DNA of 64,000 nt from Thecamonas trahens ATCC 50062 (lineage: Eukaryota; Protista; Apusomonadida). The position numbers were made by a program, and so were the translations under genes. Shown here one piece after another: positions 13,126 to 34,630 of the stretch (position 1 is its first letter; each line of letters starts with the position of its first letter). The stretch is taken from the NCBI RefSeq assembly GCF_000142905.1, contig NW_013657637.1, forward strand, positions 186,001-250,000. The letters are read 5' to 3'. The notes beneath the pieces are model-generated. The model was not told where the DNA came from and made no database searches. It was given only the letters and a program-made list of their open reading frames with translations.

Positions 13126-13367
13126 GAAGCTCTCCAGCTTCTCGCCCGTGGTCTTGGTGCGGTGATTCATTGAACTCTGTGCCTACCTGTGGGCGCCATT
13201 GATGTAGCAACACATATGTGTCCCCCGTCGTTGTCCCCCATGCCCGGTATCGCCCTTCCCTGCAGCACGTGACAGACCTGACAAGTCGTAACCCCCCCCC
13301 CCCCCCCCCGCTTCCCCCCCTCCCCCTCCCCCCTCCCCCCTCCCCCCTGCCCACACCCCACCCCACC

Positions 13368-16220
13368 ATGGCAGACGAATGGTGGAAGGACGGCGGGGCG
13401 CAGGACGCCATGGACGACCTCTTTGCCGACACCGCCGCGCCCTTTGCCGACGCCACGGCCACCGACGCCAAGGCTCCCACCACCACCGCCACCACCGCCA
13501 CCAGCACCACCAGCACCACCCCCTCCACCCCCTCCACCCCCACCCCTTCCACTGCCTTTGTCAAGAACACCCAGGTCCACGCCCTCTACACCTACACTGC
13601 CAAGGCCGACGACGAACTCTCCGTCCAGAAGGGCGACCTGCTCGTCGTCCTCGACACGCCGTCTCCTGGTTGGCTCGCCATCCGTTCGCTCCTCACAGGA
13701 GAGTCGGGCCTTCTCCCGGACAACTACGTGGCCGCAACCACCGCTCACTCGCGATCCAAGGTCAAGGTGCCAGAGACGGCCAAGGCGCCGCACACAGCCA
13801 AGGCCAAGGCCGACGCAACCGAAGCTAGGACTCGCTCCATTCCGCCACGCAAGAAGCGGACCATCTCGTTTGATCCGGCGGTGGTGCCGGCGAGCTCGGT
13901 TGCTGCTCCTGACAGAGATGGCGGGGCTGGGAGTGACGGCCAAGGCGACGGCGAGCTGGTTGACGACGATCTGGTCTCGACCTCACCGCTCGGCGACCTT
14001 GATCTGGAAGCCTTTGTCAACACCATTGCCAACGCCCTCAACAAGCCGGTGGAAAAGGCGGCCAAGTGGCTGGCGACGCTGCGGAGCAACGACTACGATG
14101 AGGTGCAGGATCTGGTATACGCGCTTCAGCGTGGCTACTCACCCAGCGACCTCGGGATCTCGCGGCTGGTTGTCGACGCCATGCGCGAGTGGTTCGCCGA
14201 CAACCTCGGCGAGATCTTTGCCGCCGCCCCGGGCGCCGACTCGATGGGCTCGGCCTCGGCCCGCGCCGCCACCGTCGCCGCCTTTCGTCGCCCACCCACC
14301 GCCAGGGTCGACTCGGAAGTCGCCGCCAAGGAGCGCCTCGGTTTCCCCTGCCGCCTCTGCGACTGCTCGGCTTACTTTGGCTCCAAGGTTGTGGCCCTCT
14401 GCCTGCGATGCAAGCACGATCCCGACGCCCACGCCGCACCGCCGTCGGCAGCCGGCCTCAACCTTGATGACAAGCCGCCGGCGCTCTTTCCTGGCGCCGC
14501 TCCCGACCGCGACGCCTACCACTTTGACCTCCTCGGCGACGACTACGACCGCCCGTCCAAGGCCAACCTCATGACGCTCCTGCCTGACGCTCAGCCCGAC
14601 ACCACATCGCCCTGGGGCGAGGAGCTTGACTCGGACGAGGACTTTGACGAGTTTGACAAGCTGTTTGGCAACGCCCAGCTCCGGCCGGGCGCCCTCGCCG
14701 TCAAGGCCAACGAGCCTGCTCTCGCCGCAAAGTCGGCACCGACAGCCCTTGCCGGCCTGCCCGAGGCCATGCGCAAGCCGGCGCTCGCCACCCGCATGGG
14801 CGTAGTCGTCTGGCTTGCCACCGAGTTCCGCACGCCCGAGGAGCGCCTCATGGCCTACTGGCGCGCCCAGGGCCACACCGTCCACGCACAGCGCAAGGCC
14901 CACGCCGCCATGGCCATTGTCCGTGCCTCAGGCCTCTCGTCCGTTGCTGTCATCATCGCCCGCCAGACCCGCGACGAGGGCCTCGCTCTCCTCCGCGACA
15001 TCCGCTCCGACCGCAACTACGACGACGTCCGCATCGTTGTCCACATGCGCGGCCTTGGCGACAACCCAGAGGCGCTCGCAAAGTACACGGCCGCAGGCGT
15101 CAACGCCCTCGCCGACTCGTACGACGACGTCGACGCCCAGATCCAGGTCTTCGGCTCGGGCGGCTCTGCCCTCGACACCCCTGCCCGCGGCCCCGCGCCC
15201 AAGCCGGCTACCGACGACGCGCCCGCCGACGCGCCGCCGGCAGACCCAGACGCGCCGCCGCGTCCTACCACAGCGTCGACCGTCCTGGTTGTCGGCCACG
15301 CCGCAGGCCCCGAGTGGCGGTCCATGCTCCACGACTGGACGCCTGCCGCCATTGTCGGCGCGCCCACCCTCTCGCACTCGCGCGTCCGGCTCACCCTCCA
15401 GACCTGCTCCGACGTCTGCCTCGTCCTCTCCCACCCGGACGTCGACGAGGCTCTCGACATGGCCCACAAGGTGGTCCGCTACACCTCCAAGGCCAACTCG
15501 CTCTCGCGGTTCTTCCTCATCGCCCTCACCGCCCACTCGCACCGCGGCCACGTCGACGCCTTTGTCGCCGCAAACTGCGCCCTCGTCAACTCGCTACCGG
15601 CGCTCTCGGCTTGCGTCTCGGCCTTTCTTACTCCGTGCGCCTGGCGCGACTGCCCGCAGCCTCGCATGGCTCTCAACGGCGTGCTCTACGACTACTGCTC
15701 CCGCGAGCACTACGACGCTGCGCAGGACGCCGCCTCGTCCTCCGATTCGGACAACGAGACAGCGGCCTCCAAGCCGTCAGGCGTTTCAGACAAGCCTACC
15801 GGTGCCCGTGGCTGGTCCGCGCCTTCGGCCTCACGCTGGGCAGCAAAGGGCTCAAAGTGGGGCCGCCCGCCGCCGTCCAAGGGCGGGCTCACCGACTCGC
15901 CCGCCGCGACCGCTGCCGCAGGTGGCTCGGCCAAGGCCAAGGGTAAGGGTAAGGGCAAGGCCAAGGCCAAGGGCAAGGGCAAATCCAAGGCCAAGAGCAA
16001 GACCAAGGGCAAGACCAAGGGAAACGCGCCGCCTGGCGGCTTTCTCACCCTCGAGCAGCTCAAGAACGGTCCGCTTCCCGATGGCATGGACCACACTGCC
16101 AAGGAGGTCTACCTCTCGGACGAGGACTTTGAGGCTGCGCTCGGCTGCTCGCGCGAGGAGTTTGCCGCCATGCCAGCGTGGCGGCGCGAGCTGGCCAAGC
16201 GCAAGATCGGCCTGTTCTGA
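13368..16220 (+). CDS. SH3 / SAM-like / Zn-finger / two receiver-like domains / villin headpiece protein (~950 aa)
   Basis: SH3 (ALYTYTAKADDELSVQKGD..GW..GLLPDNYV); C-terminal headpiece KEVYLSDEDFEAALGCSREEFAAMPAWRRELAKRKIGLF; Cys/His clusters CRLCDC..CLRCKH..H and CAWRDC..YCSREH. Confidence 0.85.
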   Translation: MADEWWKDGGAQDAMDDLFADTAAPFADATATDAKAPTTTATTATSTTSTTPSTPSTPTPSTAFVKNTQVHALYTYTAKADDELSVQKGDLLVVLDTPSPGWLAIRSLLTGESGLLPDNYVAATTAHSRSKVKVPETAKAPHTAKAKADATEARTRSIPPRKKRTISFDPAVVPASSVAAPDRDGGAGSDGQGDGELVDDDLVSTSPLGDLDLEAFVNTIANALNKPVEKAAKWLATLRSNDYDEVQDLVYALQRGYSPSDLGISRLVVDAMREWFADNLGEIFAAAPGADSMGSASARAATVAAFRRPPTARVDSEVAAKERLGFPCRLCDCSAYFGSKVVALCLRCKHDPDAHAAPPSAAGLNLDDKPPALFPGAAPDRDAYHFDLLGDDYDRPSKANLMTLLPDAQPDTTSPWGEELDSDEDFDEFDKLFGNAQLRPGALAVKANEPALAAKSAPTALAGLPEAMRKPALATRMGVVVWLATEFRTPEERLMAYWRAQGHTVHAQRKAHAAMAIVRASGLSSVAVIIARQTRDEGLALLRDIRSDRNYDDVRIVVHMRGLGDNPEALAKYTAAGVNALADSYDDVDAQIQVFGSGGSALDTPARGPAPKPATDDAPADAPPADPDAPPRPTTASTVLVVGHAAGPEWRSMLHDWTPAAIVGAPTLSHSRVRLTLQTCSDVCLVLSHPDVDEALDMAHKVVRYTSKANSLSRFFLIALTAHSHRGHVDAFVAANCALVNSLPALSACVSAFLTPCAWRDCPQPRMALNGVLYDYCSREHYDAAQDAASSSDSDNETAASKPSGVSDKPTGARGWSAPSASRWAAKGSKWGRPPPSKGGLTDSPAATAAAGGSAKAKGKGKGKAKAKGKGKSKAKSKTKGKTKGNAPPGGFLTLEQLKNGPLPDGMDHTAKEVYLSDEDFEAALGCSREEFAAMPAWRRELAKRKIGLF

Positions 16221-18738: not shown

Positions 18739-19006
18739 TTGCCACAAAGTTTGTGCGCGGGAACGAGGGCAGAGGGGAGGAGGAGGAGGAGGAGGGAGGG
18801 GGGGGGGGGATCAGGGGGGAGGGAGAGGAGGCGGAGTACAGGGAGAAGGGTGACCGAGGGTGCGACCACGGTGACATGCCATTCGCCGCGGCAGGCAGGC
18901 AGGAGGAGGAGGTGGTGTCTGCATACCCCACTCCCCCCGTCTCTCTCTCTCTCCCCTCCCTCTCCCCCTCTGGCAGCCGCCGCATCTTTGCAAACGTTTG
19001 TGGGTC

Positions 19007-20770
19007 ATGGCGAGCCAGGGCGCGTGCGGGGGATGCGGCAAGGCCATTTACCCCTTTGACAAGGCCCATGAGGTCAAGGGCGTCCGCCTGCACGCCGGCT
19101 GCTTTGCCTGCACTTCCTGCAAGCGCATTCTCAAGCCGACCGGGAGATACGGCATTGTTGCTGGTCGCTACTACTGCTCGCGTCATGCGCGGGAGGCCGA
19201 AGCTGCTGTTGGTGGTGGCGGTGGGGATGCTGGGGATGACACGCGCAAGCGGGCCACGTCCGAGGGCACCCCGTCGCCTGCGCGAGCGGCTGCCGCCCGC
19301 GACGCTTTAGCCCCTGTGGCGAGCGAAGCTGCAACGCCTTTGGCGAGTGGGCCGACAGGCGGCGGCAAGCGCCTGGCCGGACGTGATCGGATTGCGTCCG
19401 AGGGCACTCCGTCGCCATCACGAGTGGCTGCGGCACGGAGCGCGTTTGAGGGCGGATCCAGCGAGCCGCGGAAGTCGCGGCGGGCGACAGAGGGCGTGCC
19501 AAAGGCGTCGCGGGTAGCGGCGGCCAGGGCGGCGTTTGCTGGCGGCGATGTCGGGACTGACAAACCCAAGTCCAAGGTTAGCGCAGTCAAGGCTGCATCG
19601 GGGCGGGGGCGGCGGACCGCGTCCGAGGGCTCTCCGTCGACATCGCGCATGCAGGCTGCGCGCGCAGCGTTTGCAGGTGGCGTCCCGGCGCCACCATCTC
19701 CGAAGCGGGCGGCGCCACCGTCACCAACGCGGGCGGCGCCACCGTCACCAACGCGGGCGGCGCCACCGTCACCAACGCGGGCGGCGCCACCGTCACCAAC
19801 GCGGGCGGCGCCACCGTCACCAACGCGGGCGGCGCCACCGTCACCAACGCGGGCGGCGCCACCGTCGCCAACGCGGACGGCACCACCGTCACCAACGCGG
19901 GCGGCGCCACCGTCACCAACGCGGGCGGCGCCCCCGTCACCAACGCGGGCGGCGCCACCGTCACCAACGCGGGCGGCGCCACCGTCACCAACGCAGACGG
20001 CGCCACCGTCACATCCTACCCCCCCACACGCTCCGGCTCCAGAGGTTCGCGGTCATCTTGTCACTCTTTGCCCGTCGTCCGAATACTGCCTATACGATCG
20101 TCCAATTCCGCTCGCGCCGGGATGGACCGACAACCCGTCGCGCGTCCTCTGGCTGCCGCAGTCCTCAGGCCACGCCTCGGTTGTCTGGGCCGGACCAGAG
20201 GCCCCCCGCCCCGCCAGGGTGCGAGCCCTCGCTGCTGCCCGTGCGTCCGGCACGCTTACCCCGCTGCTTGCCCACGCCGCCGATCTCGCGGCTGTGCTCG
20301 ACACGCCGCTCGAGCTGCCGCCTGGCATCGATACCAACTCGCCCTCGCTAGTCAAAGCGACGCGATCACCAGGCGGTTCGTTTTCCTTTACCCGTGCGGC
20401 GCCCCTGGAGAGCCCACTGTGGACCCGCGCTGCGCTTGCTGCCGATGACGCCGTGTATGTCGCTGACGACGGTCTCTTCTCGGCCTACATCTGGAAGGCC
20501 CCACGCGCAACGCTCTCACAGGCCGAGACCATTGCACTCACCGCTGCGCTGCAGGCCGGCGAACATGCGCCATGTCTTGCTGTCGCCCGCCCCTGGGCTC
20601 TGCACGTCACCGTGCTCGATGCAGGCTCGGAGAGCTCTCCATTCAAAGCGCTGTTTGTTGATTGGCACCCAGCTGTCACCGCCCTCGTCTCGGCGCTCGC
20701 TGATCCCGACGCACACCTTGCAGTCGCCGCCATGTTTCCGCCACGTGCCACCAAGAAAGCAATCGCCTAG
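19007..20770 (+). CDS. LIM-domain protein with Pro/Ser repeat array and C-terminal gelsolin-like repeat
   Basis: LIM (CGGCGKAIY..HAGCFACTSCK..YCSRH); C-terminal AVYVADDG..AYIWKA..VTVLDAGSESSPFKALFVDW resembles villin/gelsolin repeat 3/6. Confidence 0.8.
   Translation: MASQGACGGCGKAIYPFDKAHEVKGVRLHAGCFACTSCKRILKPTGRYGIVAGRYYCSRHAREAEAAVGGGGGDAGDDTRKRATSEGTPSPARAAAARDALAPVASEAATPLASGPTGGGKRLAGRDRIASEGTPSPSRVAAARSAFEGGSSEPRKSRRATEGVPKASRVAAARAAFAGGDVGTDKPKSKVSAVKAASGRGRRTASEGSPSTSRMQAARAAFAGGVPAPPSPKRAAPPSPTRAAPPSPTRAAPPSPTRAAPPSPTRAAPPSPTRAAPPSPTRAAPPSPTRTAPPSPTRAAPPSPTRAAPPSPTRAAPPSPTRAAPPSPTQTAPPSHPTPPHAPAPEVRGHLVTLCPSSEYCLYDRPIPLAPGWTDNPSRVLWLPQSSGHASVVWAGPEAPRPARVRALAAARASGTLTPLLAHAADLAAVLDTPLELPPGIDTNSPSLVKATRSPGGSFSFTRAAPLESPLWTRAALAADDAVYVADDGLFSAYIWKAPRATLSQAETIALTAALQAGEHAPCLAVARPWALHVTVLDAGSESSPFKALFVDWHPAVTALVSALADPDAHLAVAAMFPPRATKKAIA
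19684..20010 (+). repeat. Coding 24-bp minisatellite, about 13 copies (AAPPSPTR)
   Basis: Tandem gcggcgccaccgtcaccaacgcgg units seen directly. Confidence 0.95.
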
Positions 20771-23700
20771 CCTCGCACAGGGCTCCACACACAGTACTCG
20801 CCGACGACCCTAAGCGCAGCCGCGTCGGCTTCGTCGAGCACGATGGACTCCACGTCAGCATCACCGGCCGCACGCGCATCCAGCACGTCATTGGAGACGC
20901 GCGCCGCCACGCCGGGGGCCGTCGCCAGCGTCACATGAGGCCGCCGTCCGGCATCCACCTCGATGCCGCCCAGCGCCACTGCCAAGCACACAATCCCGCG
21001 CCCGGCGACCAGCTCGACCGCATTCACCTCGACGCCATCAGCCAGTGCCGCGTTGGCAGTCTCGTCAAGTGCTCGGACATCACCCACCGTCGCCTCGGCG
21101 ATGTACCGCAGCGTGACGTGGAACCCGATGCGTGCCCGGGCATCTGCGTCGGCCTCCAGCGCTGCACTGTCACCGCCGGCCGCCGCTACCGCGCGCGCCC
21201 ACGCACTGTCTCCTGACGCCGTCGCGCGCCACGTGCACATTGCTCGGCTGAGCGTTGGAAGCGACAGCCCGGCAAACCGGAACCATGGCACAACGGCGGC
21301 GTTCACACGTGCGCTTCCGCCGTGAGTAACCCCGTCGACCACCGCACTCACAGCGACATCCAGCAGACCGTCTGCGTCGTAGATCCGCGAGTGCAGGCCA
21401 CGGACCTCGTCGAGTGCACTTGCCAGCGCCGCAGCCTGCTCCCCCCACGAGAGGCCCGCCATCGGGTTGCCCTTGCGACGGCCGGAGAAAAGGTGCTTGA
21501 TCGTCGCCAGCGGCTCGGCATACTCCGCGAGGGCGAGTTCGGCTTCGGCACTATCGCAGATCCCGAGCGAGACTACTTGCCCCCCAGCCGCCTCGGTTGC
21601 AGCCACCACCTTGTCGCCGTGCTTGTACTTGCCGTCACGGATCCTGCTGTGCAGCTTGCGGACGGCAGTGGTGTACTCGAGCCATGCTTCGCGCGACACT
21701 GTCGCCGCTTCCACCGAGCTCGCATCGCTGGCATGATCCGGCCGATCCAGCACGCCAAGGTACGCCAGTGCGTCCATGACCTCGTACCCACTCGGCGTGC
21801 TGGCCAGCCGTAAGACAAGCCAACTGGCATCGTGGATCAGCGATGATGCGCCGCGATTGTCGTACACCAGCACCGGCGTCTTGCCTGCCGCTCTTGCTGC
21901 ATCCACTGCCTCGTTTGCCCGTCGTTTCAACTCGCGCGCCACCGTCGCGCGGCCCACCGTCGCCTGAATCTCATCGTTAGCGAGGACCGTCACAACGGCC
22001 TCCTCGCCGAGTGCCTCCTGCAAAGCAGGACAGAGCTTGGTGAGAAACGTTGTCTTGCCCACTCCTGGCTCACCCGGCACAATGACCCGGACCACCGTGG
22101 TGCCGCTTCCATCTTGTGCCGTGGAGCTTGCCATTAGATCGGGAGTAAAGTGTCGCAGCGGCGCCTTGCCACAGTTGACCAGCAGCATCGGCGTCACAGT
22201 GCAAGGCGCGGCCATCCTGCCGCTGACACGCAGCACTTTGCCAATGTCGTCGTAATGGATGATCTGCTGCCAGCTGTCGTCGACCACACTTGCAGCCGCC
22301 AGATCGGCGAGTACCTCGGCCTTAAAGTTGAGCGCCGACTGCCGCGACGCCCGACGCGCAAAGACCGGCACGCGGAGCGCGCCAGACTTGCCCAGGATCC
22401 GGTAAATAGGCCCGAGCTCCGACTGGATCCGCCCAGTCAAGACCAGGACAGGCGCACCTGCCGCCACCACCCGCGAGAGCAGTGCAGGCATCGCCACACT
22501 CGCCGCCGCCGTCGTCTCATCAAACAGGGTGCCGTCAAAGTCAAAGACGTACACAACCTCGCCTGCGCCCGCAGCCACGCTCTCCGTCATCTGCATCCTG
22601 AGCGCCGCCAGCGACGCCCAGTTGGTGCCTGCGCCCAACGCACCGCTGCCCACCGCCGCCATTGCGGTTGTAGCAAGGACCGAGACCTCGCCCCCGGTCT
22701 CGAGCACAGCGCACACCTCGGCCGCCACCGCGACCACCAGCGCCGCGGCATCGGGGCCAGATACGCTCGCGCTGGCGCCGTCAGCCGTCACGCTACTCAG
22801 CACCGGAGGTGCGTGCTCGTAGAACGGCGCCACAACGTCGCCCACCCACTGGTGCACGACACGGGTCTGGGTCGGGTCTGCTCGCGGGACGAGCCCGATG
22901 CGGGCGCAGCAACCGAGGAAGAGCATGTGCGCATGCATCGATGATGGCAGCAGTCCTGGCCGCCGCATGTGACGCGTGAACGCCACAAGTGCGGTCCGGC
23001 GGGAGACGGTGTCAGCCTCAGAGCCCGCGGCTATCAGCGCCGCACGCACCGCCGTGTTGGCATCCATGATTGTCCACGCCGACCCATCATACACGATGTC
23101 GACGAGGAGGCCTCCGGCAAACTCGAGAGCAAGGACCGGGAAGGCGGCGTCGGTGACGATGCGGCTTTGGAGGAGGTCGTCTCCAAAAGCCGCGGCAATT
23201 GCAGGCGCCAGCTCATCCAGAGGCGTGTTGGTCAGTAAGTCGATGTCGGACCCGACCGGGAGCGCTCCGCCGAGCACTGCAAACGAGCCAAATGGCCGCA
23301 GCGCCACGGGCGGCAAAGTGCTTGATGCCCACGCCTGTAGCCGCCGATAGCAAGCCAGTTGACCGGAATCTGGCCCTGCAAAGGCGACGTCGGCGACCAG
23401 CGCGTCGGCGGCGGCCGACGTCATCTCACGACAGACAAGATACATGCTCATGGCCTGAGCCCGGGTCAGTTGCGGCAGTACCCGGCCACATCGGGCCGGG
23501 TACGCAATCGACGGCGTGCGCAGGCCCGACGGGATGCTAAGCACAGCCCGGGCCAGCGAGAGCACATGCTTGATGCCTCCAGCTGCGAGGGCTTCGCGCG
23601 CAAACACGCGCGAGAGTGGCGGCAGCGGGGCCGCCGAGCCACTCGCAGCCGACATGCTCCGTGCCCACTTGACGATCGTGGTGACCACAACTGGCGGCAT

Positions 23701-25164
23701 ACCATCGAGGCGTGCGACATGGGCGTGAAGCGCCGAGTCGTCGAGGCAAATCAGAGCTGCGGCGTCGACGCGGTCGAGGGCACGACCGAGGTTAGCGACA
23801 GCGGCGCCAAGCCGGGCCGGGAGTACCGGGCCAAGATGACGGGCAACTCCGTGGGCGAGTAGATCCGGCGAAAGGCCGCGAACCGCAACCCCAACGTCAC
23901 CGGCGAGCGCATGCAGCTGCGAGACGAGCAGGTCAGCGAGCAGCGCGTCGTGCGATGCCAAGCCGAGATCGTGAAGGGCGCACCACATGGCCGTCTTGAC
24001 CTTGATCAGCAGCAGCGGCTCGCCAGCGGCCGACTCGACTGCAAGCACGCCACCCTCAAAGCCCGGCTCGCTCTCGGCCTCGATGGCGGCAACAACGTCG
24101 TCGACCTCGGCGGCAGGCGGCAGCGGTAGGCGCCGCGGGATGGGCAGCCCGATGCTGGACGCCACCGTCGCTACATTCAGCATGCGGTAGGCTGGTGGGT
24201 GGGCAACGGCGGCGATGAGATAAGCTGATGGCTTGTCGGCCGCGACCGTTGTTGTCAACTCGGGATGCCGCAACTCGATCACGTAGGTGACGCCCGGCTC
24301 GAGGCGAGCGGCGAGGGCGGGCAAGTCGACAGCTTCGCACAGCATACGGTGCATGGGATGCCCGTGGCGAAGAGTGGTCTTCTGTGACTCAATCAGCAGA
24401 CCACTGTTGTCCGCCGCTCTGGGCGTCAGCTTGATGATGGCCCCATCCAGCTTCTCGCTCATGGCCACACCCGCTCCGCCCAACACCGCCACTAGCGCTG
24501 ACAGCGAGACCAAGCCCGGGCGGAGGTCAAAGAACTTGAGCAGTGGGAAGGAGAGCACAGAGGTAGCAGGATTCGAATGTTCGGGCGAGTGGCTGAGAGC
24601 GGGGATGCCAGCGGCAGCCGTGGCCACCGGGTCGACGAGCAGATCATCGGCGCGACCACGGCCACTCCCACTCCCACCCCCACCTTCTCCACCACCATGC
24701 TCATGCCCGACACGGACCTTGTGCCCGCGGACATGGGCCAGCCACGAGCCGTGGAAGGCGGCAGCGTTGGAGTATGCCACATGGGCCGTCCCGGACTCGC
24801 ATCCGATGGCCGAGACCAGGAGGGCAGACTCAGCCAGTTGGGCCCGGAGCTCCCCGACGCCGGCGGCGTGTCGGGCGGCAGTGTCCAGAGCATCGATGAC
24901 CGCCATCGGTTGGCGGGCAACTGCCACGGTGGCCAGAAAGGCAAGATCACCACGGAGCTCCTCTCCCATTCGCCCCGATCTCGCCATCCCGGCCATCGCC
25001 TTGGTCGTAGCCTCGGCTGTCTCATCCGCAAGCGACTCGGCCGCCGCCAGTGCCGCTACCAGTCGCGGCGATGGGTTCGATTCGCTGCACAGAGGTCGCT
25101 GATTATGGCTACGAGCGCATCCGCCAGCCGAATGTCGGTCCCTGGACGGTCTTGGTGAGCGCAT
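20767..25164 (-). CDS. Multidomain RNA end-healing/sealing enzyme: RNA ligase + pol-beta nucleotidyltransferase + HAD phosphatase + P-loop kinase + 2H phosphodiesterase
   Basis: KFFD, EKLDG, YVIELRH, FEGGVL, IKVKT (ligase); FGS..GSDIDL..LVDI (NTase); VFDFDGT..LTGR..K..YDD (HAD); GEPGVGKT..VYDNR..RPDH (kinase); FHVTL and PHVTL (2H). Start uncertain: 25164, 24996, or 25244 with a frameshift. Confidence 0.88.
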   Translation of the reverse strand: MRSPRPSRDRHSAGGCARSHNQRPLCSESNPSPRLVAALAAAESLADETAEATTKAMAGMARSGRMGEELRGDLAFLATVAVARQPMAVIDALDTAARHAAGVGELRAQLAESALLVSAIGCESGTAHVAYSNAAAFHGSWLAHVRGHKVRVGHEHGGGEGGGGSGSGRGRADDLLVDPVATAAAGIPALSHSPEHSNPATSVLSFPLLKFFDLRPGLVSLSALVAVLGGAGVAMSEKLDGAIIKLTPRAADNSGLLIESQKTTLRHGHPMHRMLCEAVDLPALAARLEPGVTYVIELRHPELTTTVAADKPSAYLIAAVAHPPAYRMLNVATVASSIGLPIPRRLPLPPAAEVDDVVAAIEAESEPGFEGGVLAVESAAGEPLLLIKVKTAMWCALHDLGLASHDALLADLLVSQLHALAGDVGVAVRGLSPDLLAHGVARHLGPVLPARLGAAVANLGRALDRVDAAALICLDDSALHAHVARLDGMPPVVVTTIVKWARSMSAASGSAAPLPPLSRVFAREALAAGGIKHVLSLARAVLSIPSGLRTPSIAYPARCGRVLPQLTRAQAMSMYLVCREMTSAAADALVADVAFAGPDSGQLACYRRLQAWASSTLPPVALRPFGSFAVLGGALPVGSDIDLLTNTPLDELAPAIAAAFGDDLLQSRIVTDAAFPVLALEFAGGLLVDIVYDGSAWTIMDANTAVRAALIAAGSEADTVSRRTALVAFTRHMRRPGLLPSSMHAHMLFLGCCARIGLVPRADPTQTRVVHQWVGDVVAPFYEHAPPVLSSVTADGASASVSGPDAAALVVAVAAEVCAVLETGGEVSVLATTAMAAVGSGALGAGTNWASLAALRMQMTESVAAGAGEVVYVFDFDGTLFDETTAAASVAMPALLSRVVAAGAPVLVLTGRIQSELGPIYRILGKSGALRVPVFARRASRQSALNFKAEVLADLAAASVVDDSWQQIIHYDDIGKVLRVSGRMAAPCTVTPMLLVNCGKAPLRHFTPDLMASSTAQDGSGTTVVRVIVPGEPGVGKTTFLTKLCPALQEALGEEAVVTVLANDEIQATVGRATVARELKRRANEAVDAARAAGKTPVLVYDNRGASSLIHDASWLVLRLASTPSGYEVMDALAYLGVLDRPDHASDASSVEAATVSREAWLEYTTAVRKLHSRIRDGKYKHGDKVVAATEAAGGQVVSLGICDSAEAELALAEYAEPLATIKHLFSGRRKGNPMAGLSWGEQAAALASALDEVRGLHSRIYDADGLLDVAVSAVVDGVTHGGSARVNAAVVPWFRFAGLSLPTLSRAMCTWRATASGDSAWARAVAAAGGDSAALEADADARARIGFHVTLRYIAEATVGDVRALDETANAALADGVEVNAVELVAGRGIVCLAVALGGIEVDAGRRPHVTLATAPGVAARVSNDVLDARAAGDADVESIVLDEADAAALRVVGEYCVWSPVRG

Positions 25165-25636
25165 GCCATGGCGAGTGCGGGAAAGAGAGCGGTGCTAGCT
25201 CGCGCCGCTATCGCTGTCGCTGTTGTTGTCGCTGTCGCTGGCATGACCACTGTCGATCGAAGCGATCGAAAGCTGTGTCGCACAGAACGGAAAAGAGATG
25301 GCGGAGAAGTTGGTGACTGCGATGGTTTAGAGAGGCGAGCCCGAGCTCATTTACTGTGGCCATGTCAGTCTCGCCGCCAGTCTTTGTGAGGGAGCGGGTG
25401 ACAGGGGATGGTGGCAAGATCGATGACGGCATCAACACCTCGACCTGGAGCTGAGCCGAGAGTCGGTGGCGCTAGAGGGCGTCGGGCTAGAAGACGCCGC
25501 GCTCGGCGACAATGAGGTAGATGTCCCGGGCGAGGGTAAGAGACCGATAAGAGCCAGCCAGTGTATCACCAGGCTCCAATTTCCGGGGCTCGCGCATGGC
25601 TAGCGGCATGGCGCGGGTCGGGTACAGTTGCTGGGA

Positions 25637-27931
25637 TCAAGAGGTGATGGTGGGAGGAGCACCGAGGGACTTGCGCTCGGTCATGGTTGTGGTGATTGCC
25701 TTGAGCCAGGGGGTGCGGTCGTGGGGCGAGTCGAAAACGAGGACGACGAGATCGCCGGGCGTTGCTGAGGAGCGGGAGCGGCGGACAGAGGCGGTATCCA
25801 CCGAGGAAGCGGTGGCGGTGGAGATGAGCGGGGTGAGCGCGATGGAGTGTGGAAAAGTGTCCGAGATGAGCGGCGGGGTGTCGAGCAGGTGCATGGCGTC
25901 GAGATCGTGGGCGGCGGTGACGACACGTGTGGAGCGGATGCGCTTGCGCGAGACGATGACGAGAAGGCCGGCGAAGAGGTAGGCGTACTCTGTGCGGGGC
26001 TTGAGAATCGAGTTGGCCATAGTGTTGCGCTTGATGGCGGAGGGGACAATGACGCCGATGTTGAGCTCTCCCTCGGTGATAAAGTTGCGAATCTTGAGGT
26101 CGGGCGGGAGCAGACCATCGGGGTCTTCGAGGCCTTTGAAAAAGACATCGAGCTTGTTGAGGTTGTCGGCCGTCCGCTTCCACTCGTTGATGCGGGAGAC
26201 AACGGTGCCGAGGTTGTCGGCCGTCTCGACGAGTGCGGCGTAGTCGACGTCGTTGGCAGCATCCATTTTGCGGAGAAGCTCGCGGAGGAGAAGCGGGTAC
26301 TTGCAAAGGCGCTGGATGGGCTTGATAAGGAAGGAGCCGAGCGGGAGGCTCTTGGTTTTGGGATCCTCGAACCGAGCTTGGAGAAAGGCGCGGAATTTCT
26401 TGGACGACGCTGTGAGGCTCTCTAGCGTGTTGAGCGCCCGCTCGTGGTTGGACGAGTACGGAGTGTAGACGACAAGGATGCGGCGGAGCTTGTCAGAGAG
26501 GATGTCGCCGACGCGCTCCACCCATTTGCGCTCCTTCTGGCGCTTCTTGAACTGCAACCACATCTCGCGATGGAGTGGAAGAATTTCCTCCACGTTGCCA
26601 AAGAGCGCGTCGAGGTCGTCGGCGGAAACAATGTCTAACTCGCGGAGCGGGGTGAGGAACTCGTCGATGAGGATGAGAAGGTCGAGGACGTATGCCTCCT
26701 CGGTTTGGATCATCTCGTAGATGACCTCCTGGCAGGCGAGCTGGTTCTTGGTGAAGCCTGAGATGTCGAGCGAGTGGTACTCTGCGTACTCACGGAAGTT
26801 CTTGGGCAGAGGGCCGCGCTTGGGCGCCGCGGCAAGTGCGCGCGACCGGCGTGCAGCGTTGGCAGCCCCGGTCTGGGCTGTGAGCATGGCTTTGTGCGTC
26901 CGCGATGGTAGGTCGGACGCGTTGCGTGCCACGGGGCGGGCCGGGCCAGCACCTGCACCAGAGGTCAGCACCGCCGAGTCGCGCGCGGCGCGCACCTCTT
27001 TGCCCAGCTCGAGAACGTCGAGCGAGAACGCACGCCAGCAGGCGTCGTCGGCGGCGGGGCGGATGACGATCTTGGCTTGCGAGACGGCCTTGGTCGACGC
27101 GGTCTTGAGCGCGCTGGCGAGTGCGTCGCCGTTGATACACATCGCACGCAGTGAGGCCATGAGCGTCTTGACCGACGTGACCAGCGAGCGCAGGTTTGGC
27201 GCCACTTCTCCCGGGTTGCGCACCTTGATGGCGGCCAGGACTGGTCGGAGAGCAGCGGTGACGGCATCGATCTCCGCCGCAAACGGCAGGCTTGCAAACG
27301 GCGTAGCGCGCGGCGGCACGCCGCCTGACGGCGCCGAGCCAATCGATCGCGACCGCGGGGTGCCACCCGACTCGCGAAGCGAATCGACACGCGACGACGG
27401 CAGCTGCGAGGCCAACCCTGAGTCTGAGCCTGGGCGAGTTGACGAGGTTGGCGACGAGGTCGAGGATGCGGTCGACGACGGCGATGGGGCGCCCGCGAGT
27501 GACCTCCGATTTGCGCGCCAGTGATTCTCACAGACAGGACGGCCATTAGCCTCCATGTAACCAGCCACCAGCGAGGTCGAGCATTGCGGATGTGTGCAGC
27601 GGAAGTGATCGGGGAGAAAGGAGAAGCCGAGGGCCTTGACGTAGGTACCCAGCAGCGGTTCGTTGCAACCACATTGACAATGAGGAATGTCATTGGCAGC
27701 CTCATAGCAGGAGCAGCACATGGCTGACGAGGTGAGCGCGAGCGGTCCGACCGAGACAGACGTCCGCTTGTTGGCCCCCACCTCGTAGAACCTCCGCCCC
27801 GCCAGTGTCTCTCCACAGCTGGCGCACACAAAGTGCTCCCGATGGAACCGAGCGCCAAGCACTCGGAGCGCCGTCAGGTCGTCCTCCTCCACCTCTTCAC
27901 CACATCCAGGGCATGCATTGTCTTTCTCCAT
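25637..27931 (-). CDS. LIM-LIM / FAT-like helical bundle / RhoGEF (DH-PH) protein (764 aa)
   Basis: Two paxillin-type LIMs (ALGFSFLPDHFRC); DH motifs QEVIYEMIQTEEAYVLDL, LFGNVEEI, SFLIKPIQRLCKYPLLL; PH-like FITEGEL..YAYLF..W. Confidence 0.9.
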   Translation of the reverse strand: MEKDNACPGCGEEVEEDDLTALRVLGARFHREHFVCASCGETLAGRRFYEVGANKRTSVSVGPLALTSSAMCCSCYEAANDIPHCQCGCNEPLLGTYVKALGFSFLPDHFRCTHPQCSTSLVAGYMEANGRPVCENHWRANRRSLAGAPSPSSTASSTSSPTSSTRPGSDSGLASQLPSSRVDSLRESGGTPRSRSIGSAPSGGVPPRATPFASLPFAAEIDAVTAALRPVLAAIKVRNPGEVAPNLRSLVTSVKTLMASLRAMCINGDALASALKTASTKAVSQAKIVIRPAADDACWRAFSLDVLELGKEVRAARDSAVLTSGAGAGPARPVARNASDLPSRTHKAMLTAQTGAANAARRSRALAAAPKRGPLPKNFREYAEYHSLDISGFTKNQLACQEVIYEMIQTEEAYVLDLLILIDEFLTPLRELDIVSADDLDALFGNVEEILPLHREMWLQFKKRQKERKWVERVGDILSDKLRRILVVYTPYSSNHERALNTLESLTASSKKFRAFLQARFEDPKTKSLPLGSFLIKPIQRLCKYPLLLRELLRKMDAANDVDYAALVETADNLGTVVSRINEWKRTADNLNKLDVFFKGLEDPDGLLPPDLKIRNFITEGELNIGVIVPSAIKRNTMANSILKPRTEYAYLFAGLLVIVSRKRIRSTRVVTAAHDLDAMHLLDTPPLISDTFPHSIALTPLISTATASSVDTASVRRSRSSATPGDLVVLVFDSPHDRTPWLKAITTTMTERKSLGAPPTITS

Positions 27932-28194: not shown

Positions 28195-30254
28195 TCACCG
28201 CTCTGTGGCAACGCCGAAAAGATCAAGGCCAAGGAGGAAGATATGGAGCGGGATGAGCGAGATGAGCATGGCGTAGAAAAGGACGCTGTTGGCCAGGATG
28301 ACCACCGAGATGAGAAAGCCAAAGGTGATGAGGTGAAAGAGGAGGATGATGGCGCGAAAGAGCGTCGAGGTGGACATGTACACATGCGGGTGCTGGACGG
28401 TGAGCGGTGGGTTGTTGATGGCCTCAGCAAGCTTAGCGAGCACAATGGTGAGCGGGAGCATCATCCAGATGAGCGACCGCGATTTGGAGGTGACAACGAG
28501 GACAGTCTCGTGGCGGGGATCGTCATCAAGAGGGTCATCATCAAACTCTGATGCTCGCTCACGGACACCGTGCGCCTCGACCAGGCTCGGCGTCCAAAAG
28601 CCAAATGTGAGGAGAAAGAGCCGCTTGAGTGAGCCGACGACGAGGATGAACGGAACAAAGCAGCACGCACCTGAGATGTTGCTCGACGGGCGTCCGGAGA
28701 AGAGGACAAGAAGAACGATGAAGCAGAGCGTGAGGATGGCAATGTTGGCAAAGAACATGACGTCCGCCATCTGCTTGTCCAGCGGTGAGCACGTTCGCTC
28801 GATCGACCACATGCCGAGAAAGACCTGGGGCATGATGAGCACAATGAGCTGGATGATGTAGAAGAGGACAGCCTGGAGGAGGGCAGAGATGGCCTGGAAA
28901 ATGAGCGCACCCGTCCGTCCGCTGCACGGCCGAAGCGAGACCAGCTTGATGGCCACAAACAAGAGCAAGTCATGGTGAAGAATGACGACAAACGCAGCCA
29001 TGAACGCCGCAAGGAGCCACGGAAACGCCAGCAGTAGCGTCCCGCCGCAGTTCCACACCAGCACCTCGGCAGTGAGCGAGTTGAAGTACGCCAGAAGCGC
29101 ATCGACCGAGAACAAGATGGGAGCTAGGTTGCCGAGCGGGACTACATCGGTAATGTCGCCAATTGATGGCAGTGAGCCGACGTAGAGCGAGAGCGAGCCG
29201 TGGATGAGCTGGAGGTTGATGAGGAGCCGGATAGCGTCAAAGACTAAAAAGATGAGCCGGAGGACAACAAGGACAGCATAGCCGACAGCAGACGTCTCGC
29301 GACGGCGCTCGGCGTACTTGATCGCGGCGTCGGTCGGGCGAGAGGCGTCGAGTCGGCTGCCGCCTCCGCCGCTGCCGATAGCCGCCGAGGCGTGTCCGCC
29401 TGCCGTTCCGCCGCCGTCACCGGTCCGCGCGCCAAAGAAGCCACCGGCCAGCGTACCGACACCGCGCTCGGCGACGGTTCGCTTGGAGCGGTCGGCATTG
29501 TCGTCGTCCGAGTAGTACGCCTGCGAGTACGAGCCGTCGTCCGATTCGGGCGCCCATGGTGCAATGGCACCGTTCGGAGGCGGCGCGGAGTCCATCGGTG
29601 AGCAGAGCGTCGGATACCACGCATGCTTCCGCTGCTGATGAAAGAGGACCAACGCAAAGCACAGCAGGAGCACGGCACCCACCCCCGCAGCAATAGTCCC
29701 AGTCGAGTCGTCGATCCGCTGATGGAGCGAGAACGGCACGTGTGGCGCAGGGAGGACAGCAGATGGCGCCATGTCGATCCACGCCGCAATGTACAGCCAT
29801 CGATTACCAGACGAGGGCAAGCCCGAGTCGACGACAACCTCTACAAGATAAGAGTCATTGCTCGGCAGTACGCTGCTCAAAGACATTCCGATGCGGCTGG
29901 CAGAGCCCCCCGGGTAGGAGACGGTGTGAACAAGGCCGGTCGAGTTGGCATGGGACGATCCGTTTGAAGGAGCGACGAGAGGCGCGTCGTCCCATGCCAG
30001 AGCCAGAGCCATCGATTGAATGAGAATGGCCGAAGAGAGTGGCTTTTCCAGCGAGAAGCGAACAACGACTTGCGAGTTGGTCGACGAGGTCAAGAGCCGG
30101 GCCGAGGCGAAGCTGCCTGACGCCGTTGGCGCGAGTTCACCAGCTGAGGTCACCGCATTGCGGACCTCACCGAGAGCCGTTTCCCCTCCCAACAGGGTCG
30201 CGGGGAGGGCGAGGAGGATGAGCAGTGCGGCGAGGGTGGTGGGGGCGGTGACAT
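28195..30254 (-). CDS. Signal-peptide-bearing multi-pass membrane protein of unknown family
   Basis: Adding one C to the C5 run (30241-30245) links ATG 30254 into a signal peptide MSPPPTTLAALLILLALPATLLG; followed by a beta-rich ectodomain, a TM, a cytosolic loop and about 8-9 further hydrophobic helices. Confidence 0.65.
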
Positions 30255-30357
30255 GGGGATGAGGTGGTGAGGTGGGGGGAGGGGGGGGAGGTACTGTGAA
30301 TCGGAGAGAGCTCAAGGGCCAGGGCTTTGGGGCTGGGCTGACTTTACCACGCTCTAC

Positions 30358-33062
30358 TTACGAGATGGTGACGCGGGCAGTGGCAGGCGGCGAGATGGTA
30401 GTGGTGGCCGTGACGTAGTTGTAGACGACGGTGGCGATGGTAGAGGTCGAGGCGGCCGAGGTCGACGAGTAGCCAAGGGTGGTGGCAAACGAGTGCGGGA
30501 CGACAAGCATGATGGTGCCTGTGACCGGGGTGGAGACAGCGCCGGTCGCCGAGTTGATGGTGGTGCCGTCGAGGGTGGCATCAACGTGGATCATGTTGGC
30601 AGTGGGGACGGCCCACGGCGAGTAGAGGGCAGAGAGCTTGGCGTTGAGGTCGGCCTGAGTGGTGGTGACCGTGACAAAGCGCTCGTCGGCCGAGAGGGGG
30701 AGGGCCGAGAGGAAGAACGAGCCGGACGGGACGTCGGTGGTGCCGGTGAAGAGACCGGCATGGACGATGGCGACCTTGGTGGTACCGGCGGGTGCGGCAG
30801 GCGCGGCGGCGGCGAGGCGGTCGGCGACGAGGCGGCCGACGTTGGTCTCCATCGAGCCGGCGTTGGCAAAGTCGAGGGCGGCGTCGGTGGAGCCAGCGGT
30901 GGCGGCGAGGTGGTCGGTGAAGGCGGTGGCGCCGGCGGCGAGCGCCGACTCGACGCCAGCGAGAGCGGGCGCCGGGGCGACGGCGGCGTAAGGCACGGGC
31001 ATGCCGGTGAACATCGACGGGGCCTCGCGGCGGATGGTCATGTCGAGGCCAGAGAGGTAGTTGTTACCACCCGAGGTCGAGAGAACAGCCTTGCCGTTGG
31101 CGGCCGAGTAGCCGTAGGCAAACGAGTTGCCCTGGACCACCACATGGGCCGGGAGCTTGGTCGGGGTCGATGACGAGACCGAGGTCAGCTTGGCGTTGTC
31201 GGCCGAGGTCTGGTGGGTGACGGCCACAAGAATGTCGTAGTCGGCAGCGTGGGCGTCGGCAATGCGGGTGATGGCCACCGCCGGGTCCTCCCAGGCAAGC
31301 GCAGCCACGTTGGGGTTGGAGACAAGGCCGACAACGCCAAAACGGATCCCGTCGGCGGTGACGACGACAAAGTCCGAGGTCGAGTCCAGCGCCATGCCGT
31401 CGGACGTCTTCTTGATGTTGGAGAGGACCCACGCGAGCGAGCCGGTCGAGGCGGCGGTCGCGGTCTTGGCCGAGACGGCAAAGAGCGCCTCGAGCTCTGC
31501 AGGCGACGACGCGAGCTTGAGGTCGTTCATGCCAGGCGTGGCCACAATGCGCGAGCCGTTGCCCGCTGCCATGGCCGCCAGCGCGTTGTTGATGGCAGAG
31601 CCGCGGACAGCGGACGAGGCCGAGGTGGTGGTGAGGAAGAAAGCGTCACCGGCAAAGGCAGTGAATGTCTTGGACATATCGTGCGCTTCTCCGTTTGCCA
31701 CCATGCCTCCGATGTACTGCAGCTTGCTCTCCGTTGACACGTCCGAGAATGCCAGCAGCTGGACATTGGCCACGCCCTGGGCCAGGATCTGCATCGGCGT
31801 CAGTTTGGCCATCATGGCCTCGTCGCGGTTGACCTGCTCGAGGTCGAGCACCTTGTTGTACACCACAGTCCAGCCCACAATAAACAGCACGCCAAACACA
31901 AGTGCAGCCACAAACATCAGGCCCTGGTTGAGTGTGGGGCCTGGCAATCGAACGCGTGGCGATGGTGGTGAGTGGCGGTTTTGATCAGTGGGGAAAAAAA
32001 GGTGTGGCGGGGCGGGGGGAGGGGAAAGTGGGGAGGGGGTGGTGAGGGGGTGGGGCGGGGGGGGGGGTGGGGGAGGCGTATGCAAGATGNNNNNNNNNNN
32101 NNNNNNNNNNNNNNNNNNNNNNNNNNNNNNNNNNNNNNNNNNNNNNNNNNNNNNNNNNNNNNNNNNNNNNNNNNNNNNNNNNNNNNNNNNNNNNNNNNNN
32201 NNNNNNNNNNNNNNNNNNNNNNNNNNNNNNNNNNNNNNNNNNNNNNNNNNNNNNNNNNNNNNNNNNNNNNNNNNNNNNNNNNNNNNNNNNNNNNNNNNNN
32301 NNNNNNNNNNNNNNNNNNNNNNNNNNNNNNNNNNNNNNNNNNNNNNNNNNNNNNNNNNNNNNNNNNNNNNNNNNNNNNNNNNNNNNNNNNNNNNNNNNNN
32401 NNNNNNNNNNNNNNNNNNNNNNNNNNNNNNNNNNNNNNNNNNNNNNNNNNNNNNNNNNNNNNNNNNNNNNNNNNNNNNNNNNNNNNNNNNNNNNNNNNNN
32501 NNNNNNNNNNNNNNNNNNNNNNNNNNNNNNNNNNNNNNNNNNNNNNNNNNNNNNNNNNNNNNNNNNNNNNNNNNNNNNNNNNNNNNNNNNNAGGGGAAGG
32601 GGGACGGGGGGAGGGGGGGGGGCGGGCAGCAGCCTGCCGTTTGACGGCCTTTTGCTGGACGCGGGTTGATCAGGCGCAGGCCCAGGACGCAGCGCAGGGT
32701 GTGGGGCAAGGGGGCAGGGTGTGTGTGTGCGAGGGGTACGGGGGCGCGGGGGGGGGATGTGGAAAACGTACCCTCTTCCTCCTCATCTTCAGCGGCTTCC
32801 ATCTCGCGGCGCTTCTCCTCCTGGAAGGCAGCGCGGCGGGCCTCCTTCTCCTCGGCCTCACGGCGGGCGGCATCGAGGGCCAGCTCCTCCACAAGACCGT
32901 CGACAGTCACAGCGAGGTCGTCAAGGCGTGTGCCCAGTTCAAGGTCACGCTCGCGGCTATGTAGGGAGGGATGGGGGAGGGATGGGGTGAGTGTGGGGGG
33001 ATGTGGAAGAGGAAGAGAGGGAGAGGGAAGGGTGTGTGTGCGTGTGCTACGTACCCAGACAT
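30358..33062 (-). CDS. Type II membrane 5'-nucleotidase-like (metallophosphoesterase) protein with degenerate active site; exons 33062-33055, 32956-32772, 31940-30358
   Basis: Two GTACGT..ACTCAC..AG introns join MSGRERDLELG..EDEEEE-GPTLNQGLMFVAALVFG in frame; then LLAFSD, AGD, PGMND, VTH, QGNS and the 5'-nucleotidase C-domain ETNVGRLVAD / VAIVHAG. Extra exons could lie in the N gap. Confidence 0.7.
32090..32591. other. Assembly gap (N) within an intron
   Basis: Run of N flanked by G-rich tracts. Confidence 1.
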
Positions 33063-33319
33063 GGTTTGGTTGCGGGAAGACGACTGTTGTGGTCGGAAGT
33101 ACGGCGGGCTGCGTTCAGCGTCAGCGCCACGGCACTTTGCCCTTTTCTGGGAGCGAGGGAAGGGAATGGGCGATTCACATCAATGTTTGATGGCGCCAGC
33201 CAAGCAACAACCGACAGCAGCCATGGGCAGGTCACGCGACAGCTCATGGCGGAGAGGGAGAGACTGGAGGCGGGAGGTTTGAGGAGCACACGTGACTCTT
33301 ACAACGCGAGCGAATAGAG

Positions 33320-34630
33320 ATGCGAACAAGTGCGTATGTGGTGGCTTTGGCTGTGGCTGTGGCCATGATGACGGGCTGGACAATGGCGACGGCGGCGAGC
33401 GCGACGACGACGACGATGCAGCGGGCCGAGGCGCCGATGCTCGTCGGGTACTCGTTCGAGATGTACATGGCGGAGCACCCGATGGCTGCGGCGCACTTTG
33501 TGAGTGAGGGCGTGGACCGCGAGGCTGTGTTTGCAAAGCGGATGGCGGTGATGGTGGCGCACAACGCGCGCTACGCCGCCGGCGAGGAGACCTGGTTCAT
33601 GGGCCCTAACCTCCACACCGCGCTCACCGACGCAGAGCGGGCTATGGTCCGCGGCCATCAGGCGGAGCTCAAGCAGTTTGCCGGCAAGCATGCCCAGGAG
33701 TACCCAGTCGAGGCCGAGGTGGTCAAGGCCCGCGCTGCCGCCGCCCCGTCGCACGTCGACTGGCGCGATCACTCACCGTCGATCGTCACTGCGGTCAAGA
33801 ACCAGGGCATGGTACGAAAGGGAGTAAGGGTGTGTGTGGCGCTGATGGGTGGGAGGAGAGAAGAGAGCAGACTCGGACTCACATGGCACCCATGGCTGCT
33901 TGCGATGACGCTGGCGGACCCATAGTGCGGTTCGTGCTGGTCGTTTGCCACCGCCGAGACGCTCGAGTCGCACTATGCGCTCGCCACCGGCAAGCTGCAG
34001 GCGCTGTCGGAGCAGCAGGTGCTCGAGACGCCGAACCCGCAGGCCTGCGGCGGAACCGGCGGGTGCGGCGGCGGTATCCCTCAGCTTGCATACGACTACA
34101 TGGTCGATGCGTGGAACGGGACACTCGGAGCCGAGTGGACCTACCCGTACGAGTCTTTCTTCGGCAAGAACTTCCCGCCGGTCTCCAACTCGTCGGCGAT
34201 GAAGGCGCCGGCGGCCAAGCTCTCGGGCTACGTCCAGCTCCCGCTCAACGACCTGGACACGCTCATCGATGCCATCGCCAACGTCGGCCCGGTCGCTATT
34301 ACCGTGGACGCCTCCAACTGGCACGACTACGCCGGCGGCGTCTTTACCGGATGCAACAAGACCGACATCCACCTGGATCATGATGTCCAGCTCATGGGCT
34401 ACGGCGACGACCCGCATCTCGGCCCGTACTGGCTCATCCGCAACTCGTGGTCACCCACCTTTGGCGAGGTCGGCTACATCCGCATCGCACGCCACTCGAC
34501 CCCGCAGTGCGCCAAGGACACCCATCCCGAGGACGGCTTTGCCTGCAAGGGCGGTAAGAAGACCATCACCGTCTGCGGCGAGTGTGGCATTCTCTCAGAC
34601 TCGTGCTACCCGATCCCGGTCGTGGCGTAA
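33320..34630 (+). CDS. Papain-family (C1A) cathepsin L-like cysteine protease; intron 33812-33925
   Basis: Signal peptide, prodomain, VDWR, KNQGM|CGSCWSF across the splice junction, LSEQQ, LDHDVQLMGYG (His), WLIRNSW (Asn). Confidence 0.95.

Follow-up and report, generated by a model that had tools for sequence, protein, structure and literature searches.

In a 64,000-nucleotide stretch of the Thecamonas trahens ATCC 50062 genome (contig NW_013657637.1, positions 186,001 to 250,000; hereafter called the window), a single stop-free open reading frame (ORF) of 1465 codons was identified by ORF listing on the minus strand at positions 20767-25164. Its product, P0001, is a real, conserved and mis-annotated protein with five predicted RNA repair domains, which are arranged from the N- to the C-terminus as a putative ATP-dependent RNA ligase, a nucleotidyltransferase (NTase), a HAD phosphatase, a P-loop kinase and a 2H phosphoesterase (Table 1). 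We predict that P0001 acts like Rnl1 together with Pnkp of phage T4, equipped with a Trl1-like kinase-2H tail, and not as a Trl1 enzyme. As far as tested, the domain arrangement and the presence of an NTase of the terminal uridylyltransferase (TUTase) or poly(A) polymerase (PAP) type in an RNA repair kit are new, while this kind of RNA repair kit as well as the idea of nucleotide fill-in are already in print. The gene has been invisible to annotation because no Pfam hit passes the cut-off and the databases name a DH domain protein at this position.

Conservation of the five-domain architecture

The ORF, the domain order and the conservation of the catalytic residues are directly apparent from a comparison with the relative P0003, a protein of 1422 amino acids (aa) from an ENA assembly, which belongs to a cluster of five near-identical members and is 36% identical to P0001 over 97% of the query. 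Both proteins contain the five motif sets in unchanged order and 44 of the 47 motif residues checked are identical, compared to a background identity of about 41%. The three changes in P0003 affect the P-loop (K1037 to R), the HAD domain (D972 to E) and the 2H domain (N1425 to V). Segment by segment, the identity amounts to 43% for the ligase, 34% for the post-ligase segment, 45% for the NTase, 41% for the HAD domain, 53% for the kinase core (residues 1020-1190, the best conserved part of the protein) and 36% for the 2H domain. Most of the tested motifs had been picked in an earlier sequence-only reading that was blind to P0003, and none of 5000 shuffles of P0001 or P0003 contained the ten motif patterns in order, a generous control with patterns written post hoc. 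All motifs cited in this reading were recovered within the ORF at the positions it had given, and its five domain calls hold, each with some support, which is weak for the 2H domain.

An exhaustive profile search with residues 200-1190 against 1.84 billion representatives returned four hits. Two of these are P0001 and P0003, the profile's own members, and the third (P0010) is a kinase fragment of 165 aa with an E-value of 3e-17 that retains the P-loop Lys. The fourth (P0011), a tandem repeat protein, was dropped as spurious. P0003 is thus the one other full-length relative among these representatives, and pattern scans of metagenome contigs (performed twice) and of viral contigs gave no match. 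A profile word search for further relatives recovered the self record alone, a search for shorter proteins with residues 860-1465 revealed no relatives, and phage records searched by tblastn with the segments for ligase, HAD and 2H gave nothing credible. The score of 0.76 in a whole-protein Atlas search is a lead only. Judged by these sequence comparisons, the P0001 family is real, rare and remote from all else.

Predicted ligase, nucleotidyltransferase and end-healing domains

The ligase motifs comprise FPLLKFFD (24549-24526) and EKLDG (24456-24442), followed by SQK, YVIELRH, FEGGVL and finally IKVKT (24006-23992), and the residues of motifs I (K238, D240), Ia (K262), III (E297), IV (E370) and V (K388, K390) are all kept in P0003. 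Beyond motif V, P0001 continues with W394-x2-L397-H398. An alignment to seven phage Rnl1 sequences with hhalign covered 222 columns (E 8.1e-5, probability 61) and ended shortly past motif V. Among the 26 columns invariant in these phage enzymes, 16 are identical in P0001, including R54, K75, F76, K99, D101, E159, E227, K240, K242, L249 and H250. In the N-subdomain, R146 and K210-F211 of P0001 correspond to Rnl1 Arg54, Lys75 and Phe76 in this alignment, and we take these residues to mark the domain as an RNA ligase. Furthermore, the PHROG family phrog_562 (T4 RNA ligase 1) matches the domain over 198 aa (E 6.9e-4), and the ligase domain of P0003 reached an Atlas score of 0.97, where the listed clusters were all RNA_lig_T4_1 and mostly viral and the calibration for protein parts was not measured. 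Pfam PF09511 and the other Pfam families gave no hit to the ligase. The RxxR motif past motif V of fungal Trl1 is the proposed 2'-phosphate site (PMC6379707; here and below, statements cited by PMC number refer to the parts of these papers available to us). It is absent from the 45 residues starting at motif V, in P0001 and P0003 alike. As the RxxR of Trl1 is missing and phage Rnl1 sequences match, the ligase is classified as Rnl1-like and not as Rnl6. The post-ligase segment likely represents the C-domain of the ligase.

The NTase motifs start with LRPFGS at 23301, continue with GSDIDLL and AAFPVL and end with LVDI at 23106-23095, and G626-S627, D640, D642 and D689 are kept in P0001 and P0003. 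An AlphaFold2 model was computed for residues 595-1465 from a 7-row alignment, and most blocks of its NTase core have a predicted local distance difference test (pLDDT) value of 66-85. The first 13 ranks of a Foldseek search for this domain were TUT4, TUT7, Trf4, URT1, GLD-2 and Tut1 with E-values from 1.9e-3 to 8.2e-3, and the VIA comparison with TUT1 yielded a Z of 9.6 at a root-mean-square deviation (rmsd) of 3.6 with 97 aligned residues. In the Pfam scan of P0001, MTPAP-like_central matched the NTase under the cut-off (E 0.19) and PAP_assoc gave no hit. PF10127, the RlaP family, had no Pfam hit either, although other P0001 domains miss Pfam too, and the listed fold matches are terminal nucleotidyltransferase (TENT) enzymes. 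Taken together, the model supports a pol-beta core of the TUTase/PAP type, as proposed in the sequence-only reading (PAP/TUTase/TRF4). Past residue 695 the pLDDT is under 50, and the region that would set the base specificity is unfolded in the model.

In the HAD domain, VFDFDGT at 22548 is followed by LTGR, FK and HYDD (22257-22246), and the residues concerned are D875, D877, T910-G-R912, K948 and D972-D973 (ED in P0003). The domain matched phrog_415 (polynucleotide kinase; E 1.1e-4, 122 aa), a T4 Pnkp pair in hhalign (E 1.9e-4) and, below the cut-off, TIGR01484 (E 1e-6), and equivalents of T4 Pnkp D165, D167, S211, K258 and D278 are present. The catalytic residues of T4 Pnkp and its 2'-phosphatase activity have been described (PMC3592404). 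We therefore assign the domain to the Pnkp type on sequence grounds; the HAD_SAK families gave no hit in the Pfam scans of P0001.

The kinase motifs GEPGVGKT (22074), VYDNR and LDRPDH (21750-21733) provide the P-loop with K1037 and T1038, N1063-D1064 as candidate general base, D-N-R1104 and the lid R1141-x2-H1144. The Asn-Asp pair and the lid Arg/His are placed like N444-D445, R532 and H536 of the Candida Trl1 kinase, whose P-loop Lys is K425 (PMC7145591). The lid reads RxxH instead of the RxxxH of Trl1, and in P0001 a Gly takes the place of the initial Arg of RxxxR. Using VIA, the kinase matched enzymes of the nucleoside monophosphate (NMP) kinase fold with a Z of 8.2-9.4, and the fungal Trl1 kinase 6tzo (Z 8.5, rmsd 3.8, 176 aligned) was tied with other folds.

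The 2H domain is the least secure of the five. It contains FHVTL at 21123, PHVTLATAPGV and SNDVL (20895-20881), and both HxT motifs (H1349-x-T1351 and H1410-x-T1412) are kept in P0003. LigT_PEase matched below the cut-off (E 0.0086). The spacing of 15 between the second His and N1425 equals that of H767 and N782 in the cyclic phosphodiesterase (CPD) domain of Candida Trl1 (PMC7145591), and the Asn is not kept in P0003.

The structure prediction suggested in the sequence-only reading supported a pol-beta fold for the NTase core and a P-loop kinase fold for the kinase and left the HAD and 2H domains unfolded; families missing from the fold lists are not thereby excluded. A single-sequence fold of residues 64-855 had a mean pLDDT of 37.9 and was not used.

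Table 1. Positions of P0001, its predicted domains and adjacent features in the window
Feature	Position	Strand	Basis
P0001, predicted five-domain RNA repair protein	20767..25164	-	single-exon ORF of 1465 aa; stand-alone full-length relative P0003
Predicted Rnl1-type ATP-dependent RNA ligase	23905..24939	-	Atlas 0.97, phrog_562, hhalign
Post-ligase segment, ~180 aa, probably helical, candidate ligase C-domain	23368..23904	-	34% identity to P0003; no family hit
Predicted pol-beta-fold NTase, TUTase / non-canonical PAP type	22795..23367	-	model core, Foldseek, VIA, motifs
Predicted HAD phosphatase	22150..22599	-	phrog_415, TIGR01484, hhalign to T4 Pnkp pair; not folded in model
Predicted P-loop kinase (residues 1019-1284)	21313..22110	-	VIA fold match, conservation, third relative P0010
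Putative 2H phosphoesterase	20845..21309	-	HxT motifs, weak LigT_PEase; not folded in model
Upstream LIM-RhoGEF gene, probably separate	25637..27931	-	own stop codon, 467 bp gap; P0003 without RhoGEF part
Probable true start codon (gccATGG)	25167..25169	-	in frame if extra base at 25083 is real

Predicted repair pathway and competing explanations

Every activity, the order of the steps and the substrate of P0001 are predictions from its domains. By analogy to the CPD domain of Trl1, the 2H domain would open the ring of a 2',3'-cyclic phosphate and so yield a monophosphate. The HAD domain would strip the remaining phosphate and leave 2'-OH and 3'-OH, by analogy to T4 Pnkp, which dephosphorylates both the 2' and the 3' position. 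The 5'-OH would receive its phosphate from the P-loop kinase, the NTase would likely add one or a few untemplated nucleotides to the fresh 3'-OH, and the Rnl1-type ligase would seal the 3'-OH to the 5'-phosphate. Nucleotide addition, which would restore the length after removal of a base by a nuclease, is the weakest step. A phosphatase would be useful because the ligase lacks the RxxR proposed to impose the need for a 2'-phosphate in Trl1; the missing RxxR and the phosphatase alike suit an enzyme dependent on a bare 3'-OH. A clean 3'-OH is also the requirement of the NTase, which is consistent with a phosphatase in the same chain. The most likely substrates would be tRNA loops cut by ribotoxins; Rnl1 ligases join breaks in RNA loops, and Naegleria holds many of them (PMC4408790). 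We consider it highly probable that P0001 heals and seals RNA ends. The complete path on one chain, from stripping the 3' phosphate via 5' phosphorylation and extension to ligation, is only narrowly favored, and the same slight preference applies to nucleotide fill-in before ligation taken by itself. It seems feasible that P0001 serves in defence, as suggested by the T4 and RlaP precedents and the fast divergence. Rather doubtful, and offered with reserve, is the farther-reaching idea of a previously undescribed arrangement for guide-free heal-extend-seal insertion repair on one chain, which would defeat base-excising ribotoxins independently of bacterial and phage RlaP.

P0001 shares with T4 Rnl1 and Pnkp the Rnl1 motifs (RG, P..KFF, KxDG, KxK...[YW]..LH), the HAD set of Pnkp and a P-loop kinase. 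It differs in being a single chain instead of two proteins, in having the HAD domain before the kinase, in the additional 2H and NTase domains and in being encoded by a cellular eukaryote. The resemblance to Trl1 of fungi, plants and trypanosomes (Rnl6) lies in the ligase-kinase-2H order, the kinase Asn-Asp, the lid R..H and the two HxT motifs; the motifs of trypanosome Trl1 are given in PMC4931112. In contrast to Trl1, P0001 carries its NTase and HAD domains after the ligase and ahead of the kinase and lacks an RxxR past motif V, and its product is predicted to be free of a 2'-phosphate. Thus, the "Trl1-like chassis" of the sequence-only reading stands for the kinase and the 2H domain with their Trl1-like marks and falls for the ligase, which is phage Rnl1-like and lacks the RxxR. 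By joining a phage-type ligase to a Trl1-type kinase and phosphodiesterase, P0001 bears on the origin of Trl1, and it could be used as a one-protein reagent to join cleaved RNA ends of any kind. To our knowledge, repair of RNA with base loss has been tested only with bacterial RlaP and separately added T4 ligase. If the prediction is true, P0001 would bring the whole base-loss repair path onto one eukaryotic polypeptide with a different NTase class. RlaP attaches one or two NMP at the 3'-OH of damaged tRNA in vitro, after which T4 Rnl1 ligates the ends and aminoacylation is raised (PMC12776372). Both systems tie a pol-beta NTase to a ligase, but the NTase core of P0001 is like that of eukaryotic TUTases and non-canonical PAPs and is fused to a whole kit.

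In 2016, Burroughs and Aravind reportedly described long proteins of eukaryotes in which ligase, NTase, phosphatase, kinase and 2H domains are fused. Kits of ligase, kinase, phosphoesterase and NTase are credited to this survey in PMC7824862, and so are the "Swiss-army-knife" HAD family (Pfam HAD_SAK_1) and the prediction that bases removed by RloC-type nucleases are put back by NTases; RNA-repair fusions are diverse among eukaryotes (PMC6514570). "Swiss-army-knife" proteins reportedly combine a ligase, an NTase and several domains for end healing in a single polypeptide, as P0001 does; the Pfam scans of P0001 gave no hit to a HAD_SAK family. Among the records listed, our literature searches showed no paper on P0001, its accessions or its architecture, and they did not cover the 2016 survey, the likeliest place. 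In the trypanosome editosome, nucleotides are added at an RNA break before the ends are joined. Likewise, diplonemids append U residues before joining (PMC12699882). These systems are made up of individual proteins in the mitochondrion, with Rnl2 or RtcB as ligase, whereas P0001 is one chain and its start is not presequence-like. A role in mitochondrial editing was therefore rejected, if weakly: the first 28 residues from the likely start include four acidic and two basic ones, unlike a mitochondrial presequence.

Several results weigh against repair with fill-in by P0001. The Pfam scans of P0001 gave no family past the cut-off, including RNA_lig_T4_1, HAD_SAK, tRNA_lig_kinase and the others that the sequence-only reading had expected, and no sequence of a solved structure was matched at E <0.1. 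The model of residues 595-1465 is poor overall (mean pLDDT 42.5) and gave no Foldseek hit at E <0.001. With a plain HMM of the seven phage Rnl1 sequences P0001 and P0003 were not separable from shuffles, and the phage Rnl1 invariants R166, V168 and Y171 are not kept in P0001. The neighborhood of P0001 in the window contains nothing suggestive of defence. In addition, RlaP, the precedent for fill-in, belongs to a different NTase family, and the enzymes that the NTase of P0001 does resemble are known for adding tails. It is conceivable, though unlikely, that the protein repairs or destroys: the NTase would tail unligated ends with U or A, marking them for decay or blocking their rejoining, and would never act at the junction. 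The closest folds are indeed tailing enzymes (TUT4/7, Trf4 of TRAMP, URT1, GLD-2 and CutA), and the authors of the RlaP study point out that addition at an ordinary break would reduce the share of active tRNA (PMC12776372). Against tailing, the fusion of the NTase beside a ligase that would accept the same 3'-OH favors a hand-over to ligation, and the ligase-linked NTases of PMC7824862 are predicted to restore lost bases.

The order of ligase, kinase and 2H domain and the Trl1-like marks of the latter two would also suit a housekeeping tRNA-splicing ligase equivalent to Trl1, in which the HAD domain takes the place of Tpt1 and the NTase serves, for example, the upkeep of 3'-ends. Such a role would be in line with the use of Trl1 by trypanosomes despite RtcB (PMC4931112) and with the native-looking codon use of P0001, whose G+C content at third codon positions (GC3) of 0.74 falls within the 0.70-0.84 spanned by nine other ORFs of the window. 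We regard it as quite unlikely, as the ligase is nearest to viral Rnl1 clusters and has no RxxR, an extending enzyme would be harmful at a splice junction, and one further full-length relative among 1.84 billion representatives is unlike a slow-evolving essential gene. The extreme divergence of P0001 from all profiles might point to a partly decayed or repurposed fusion, with the kinase and 2H domains as inactive binding modules or acting on DNA ends or small nucleotides. Two further observations on the kinase, which also count against the proposed repair path, would agree with decay or repurposing: the fold match is not specific to RNA kinases, the fold being as near to nucleotide kinases, and the P-loop Lys is an Arg in P0003. 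P0010 keeps the P-loop Lys, and yeast Trl1 tolerates K404A (PMC7145591). At 36% identity, each of the five domains retains its catalytic residues, the kinase is the best-kept part and the N-subdomain residues of Rnl1 mark an RNA ligase, so that we consider this explanation very improbable.

Gene model and genomic neighborhood

The second part of the T. trahens database model AMSG_08675, a protein of 2169 aa with the name "DH domain-containing protein", matches P0001 with 100% identity. In this model, the upstream LIM-RhoGEF gene is joined by splicing to residue 28 of P0001, and the C-terminal end is different. P0003 is a stand-alone protein without a RhoGEF part and aligns to the unspliced C-terminus of P0001, and the LIM-RhoGEF ORF has a stop codon of its own, which lies 467 bp upstream of the probable P0001 start. 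In a read check of six runs, the site was covered by contigs of X2, X3 and X6 only, all from one sample. All three covering runs carry an extra base at 25083, which brings an ATG at 25169 (gccATGG) into the frame of P0001, and a second extra base at 25178 occurs in the same contigs. The assembly of the window is therefore probably short by bases at 25083 and 25178, and the start codon of P0001 is probably at 25169 rather than 25164. The missing base near the start is probably also the reason for the fused gene model. Together with the stop codon of the RhoGEF gene and the stand-alone relative, this suggests that AMSG_08675 is wrong and that the RhoGEF and the repair protein are encoded by separate genes; on the same grounds a true RhoGEF fusion was rejected. 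The annotated intron joint of AMSG_08675 was present in no contig of the six runs, which is uninformative for DNA runs. The sole run recorded as RNA contained 0.06 of the words as a few 151-base pieces; for the other five runs the kind is not recorded, and a contig spans the intergenic gap. At 26214, inside the RhoGEF gene, one contig of X5 is short by one base and X2 is not, which is probably a contig error.

Two further explanations for the ORF were discarded: a chance ORF in view of the conserved relative P0003, and a recent viral insertion in view of the native GC3 and the ordinary neighboring genes. The neighbors in the window are ordinary eukaryotic genes and include LIM-RhoGEF, LIM, dymeclin, SH3-villin headpiece, ankyrin, protein kinase and Sin3 proteins. 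The convergent LIM-domain ORF at 18998-20770 (plus strand) overlaps with its stop codon the stop of P0001 in a common CTAG at 20767-20770, and contains about a dozen tandem copies of a proline-rich unit of eight residues near 19700-20000. Long ORFs without Pfam match are located on the minus strand at 3056-9421 (2121 aa), 28195-30315 (706 aa), 30358-32910 (850 aa) and 59687-63157 (1156 aa). The G+C content drops to 0.49 at 32001-34000, compared to about 0.64 elsewhere. The product of ORF 13218-16220 (plus strand) has SH3 at the N-terminus and a villin headpiece at the C-terminus, separated by unassigned domains, and the phytochelatin synthase profile is matched in its second half (E 7e-30) by ORF 41852-42796 (minus strand), which is probably an exon of a longer gene.

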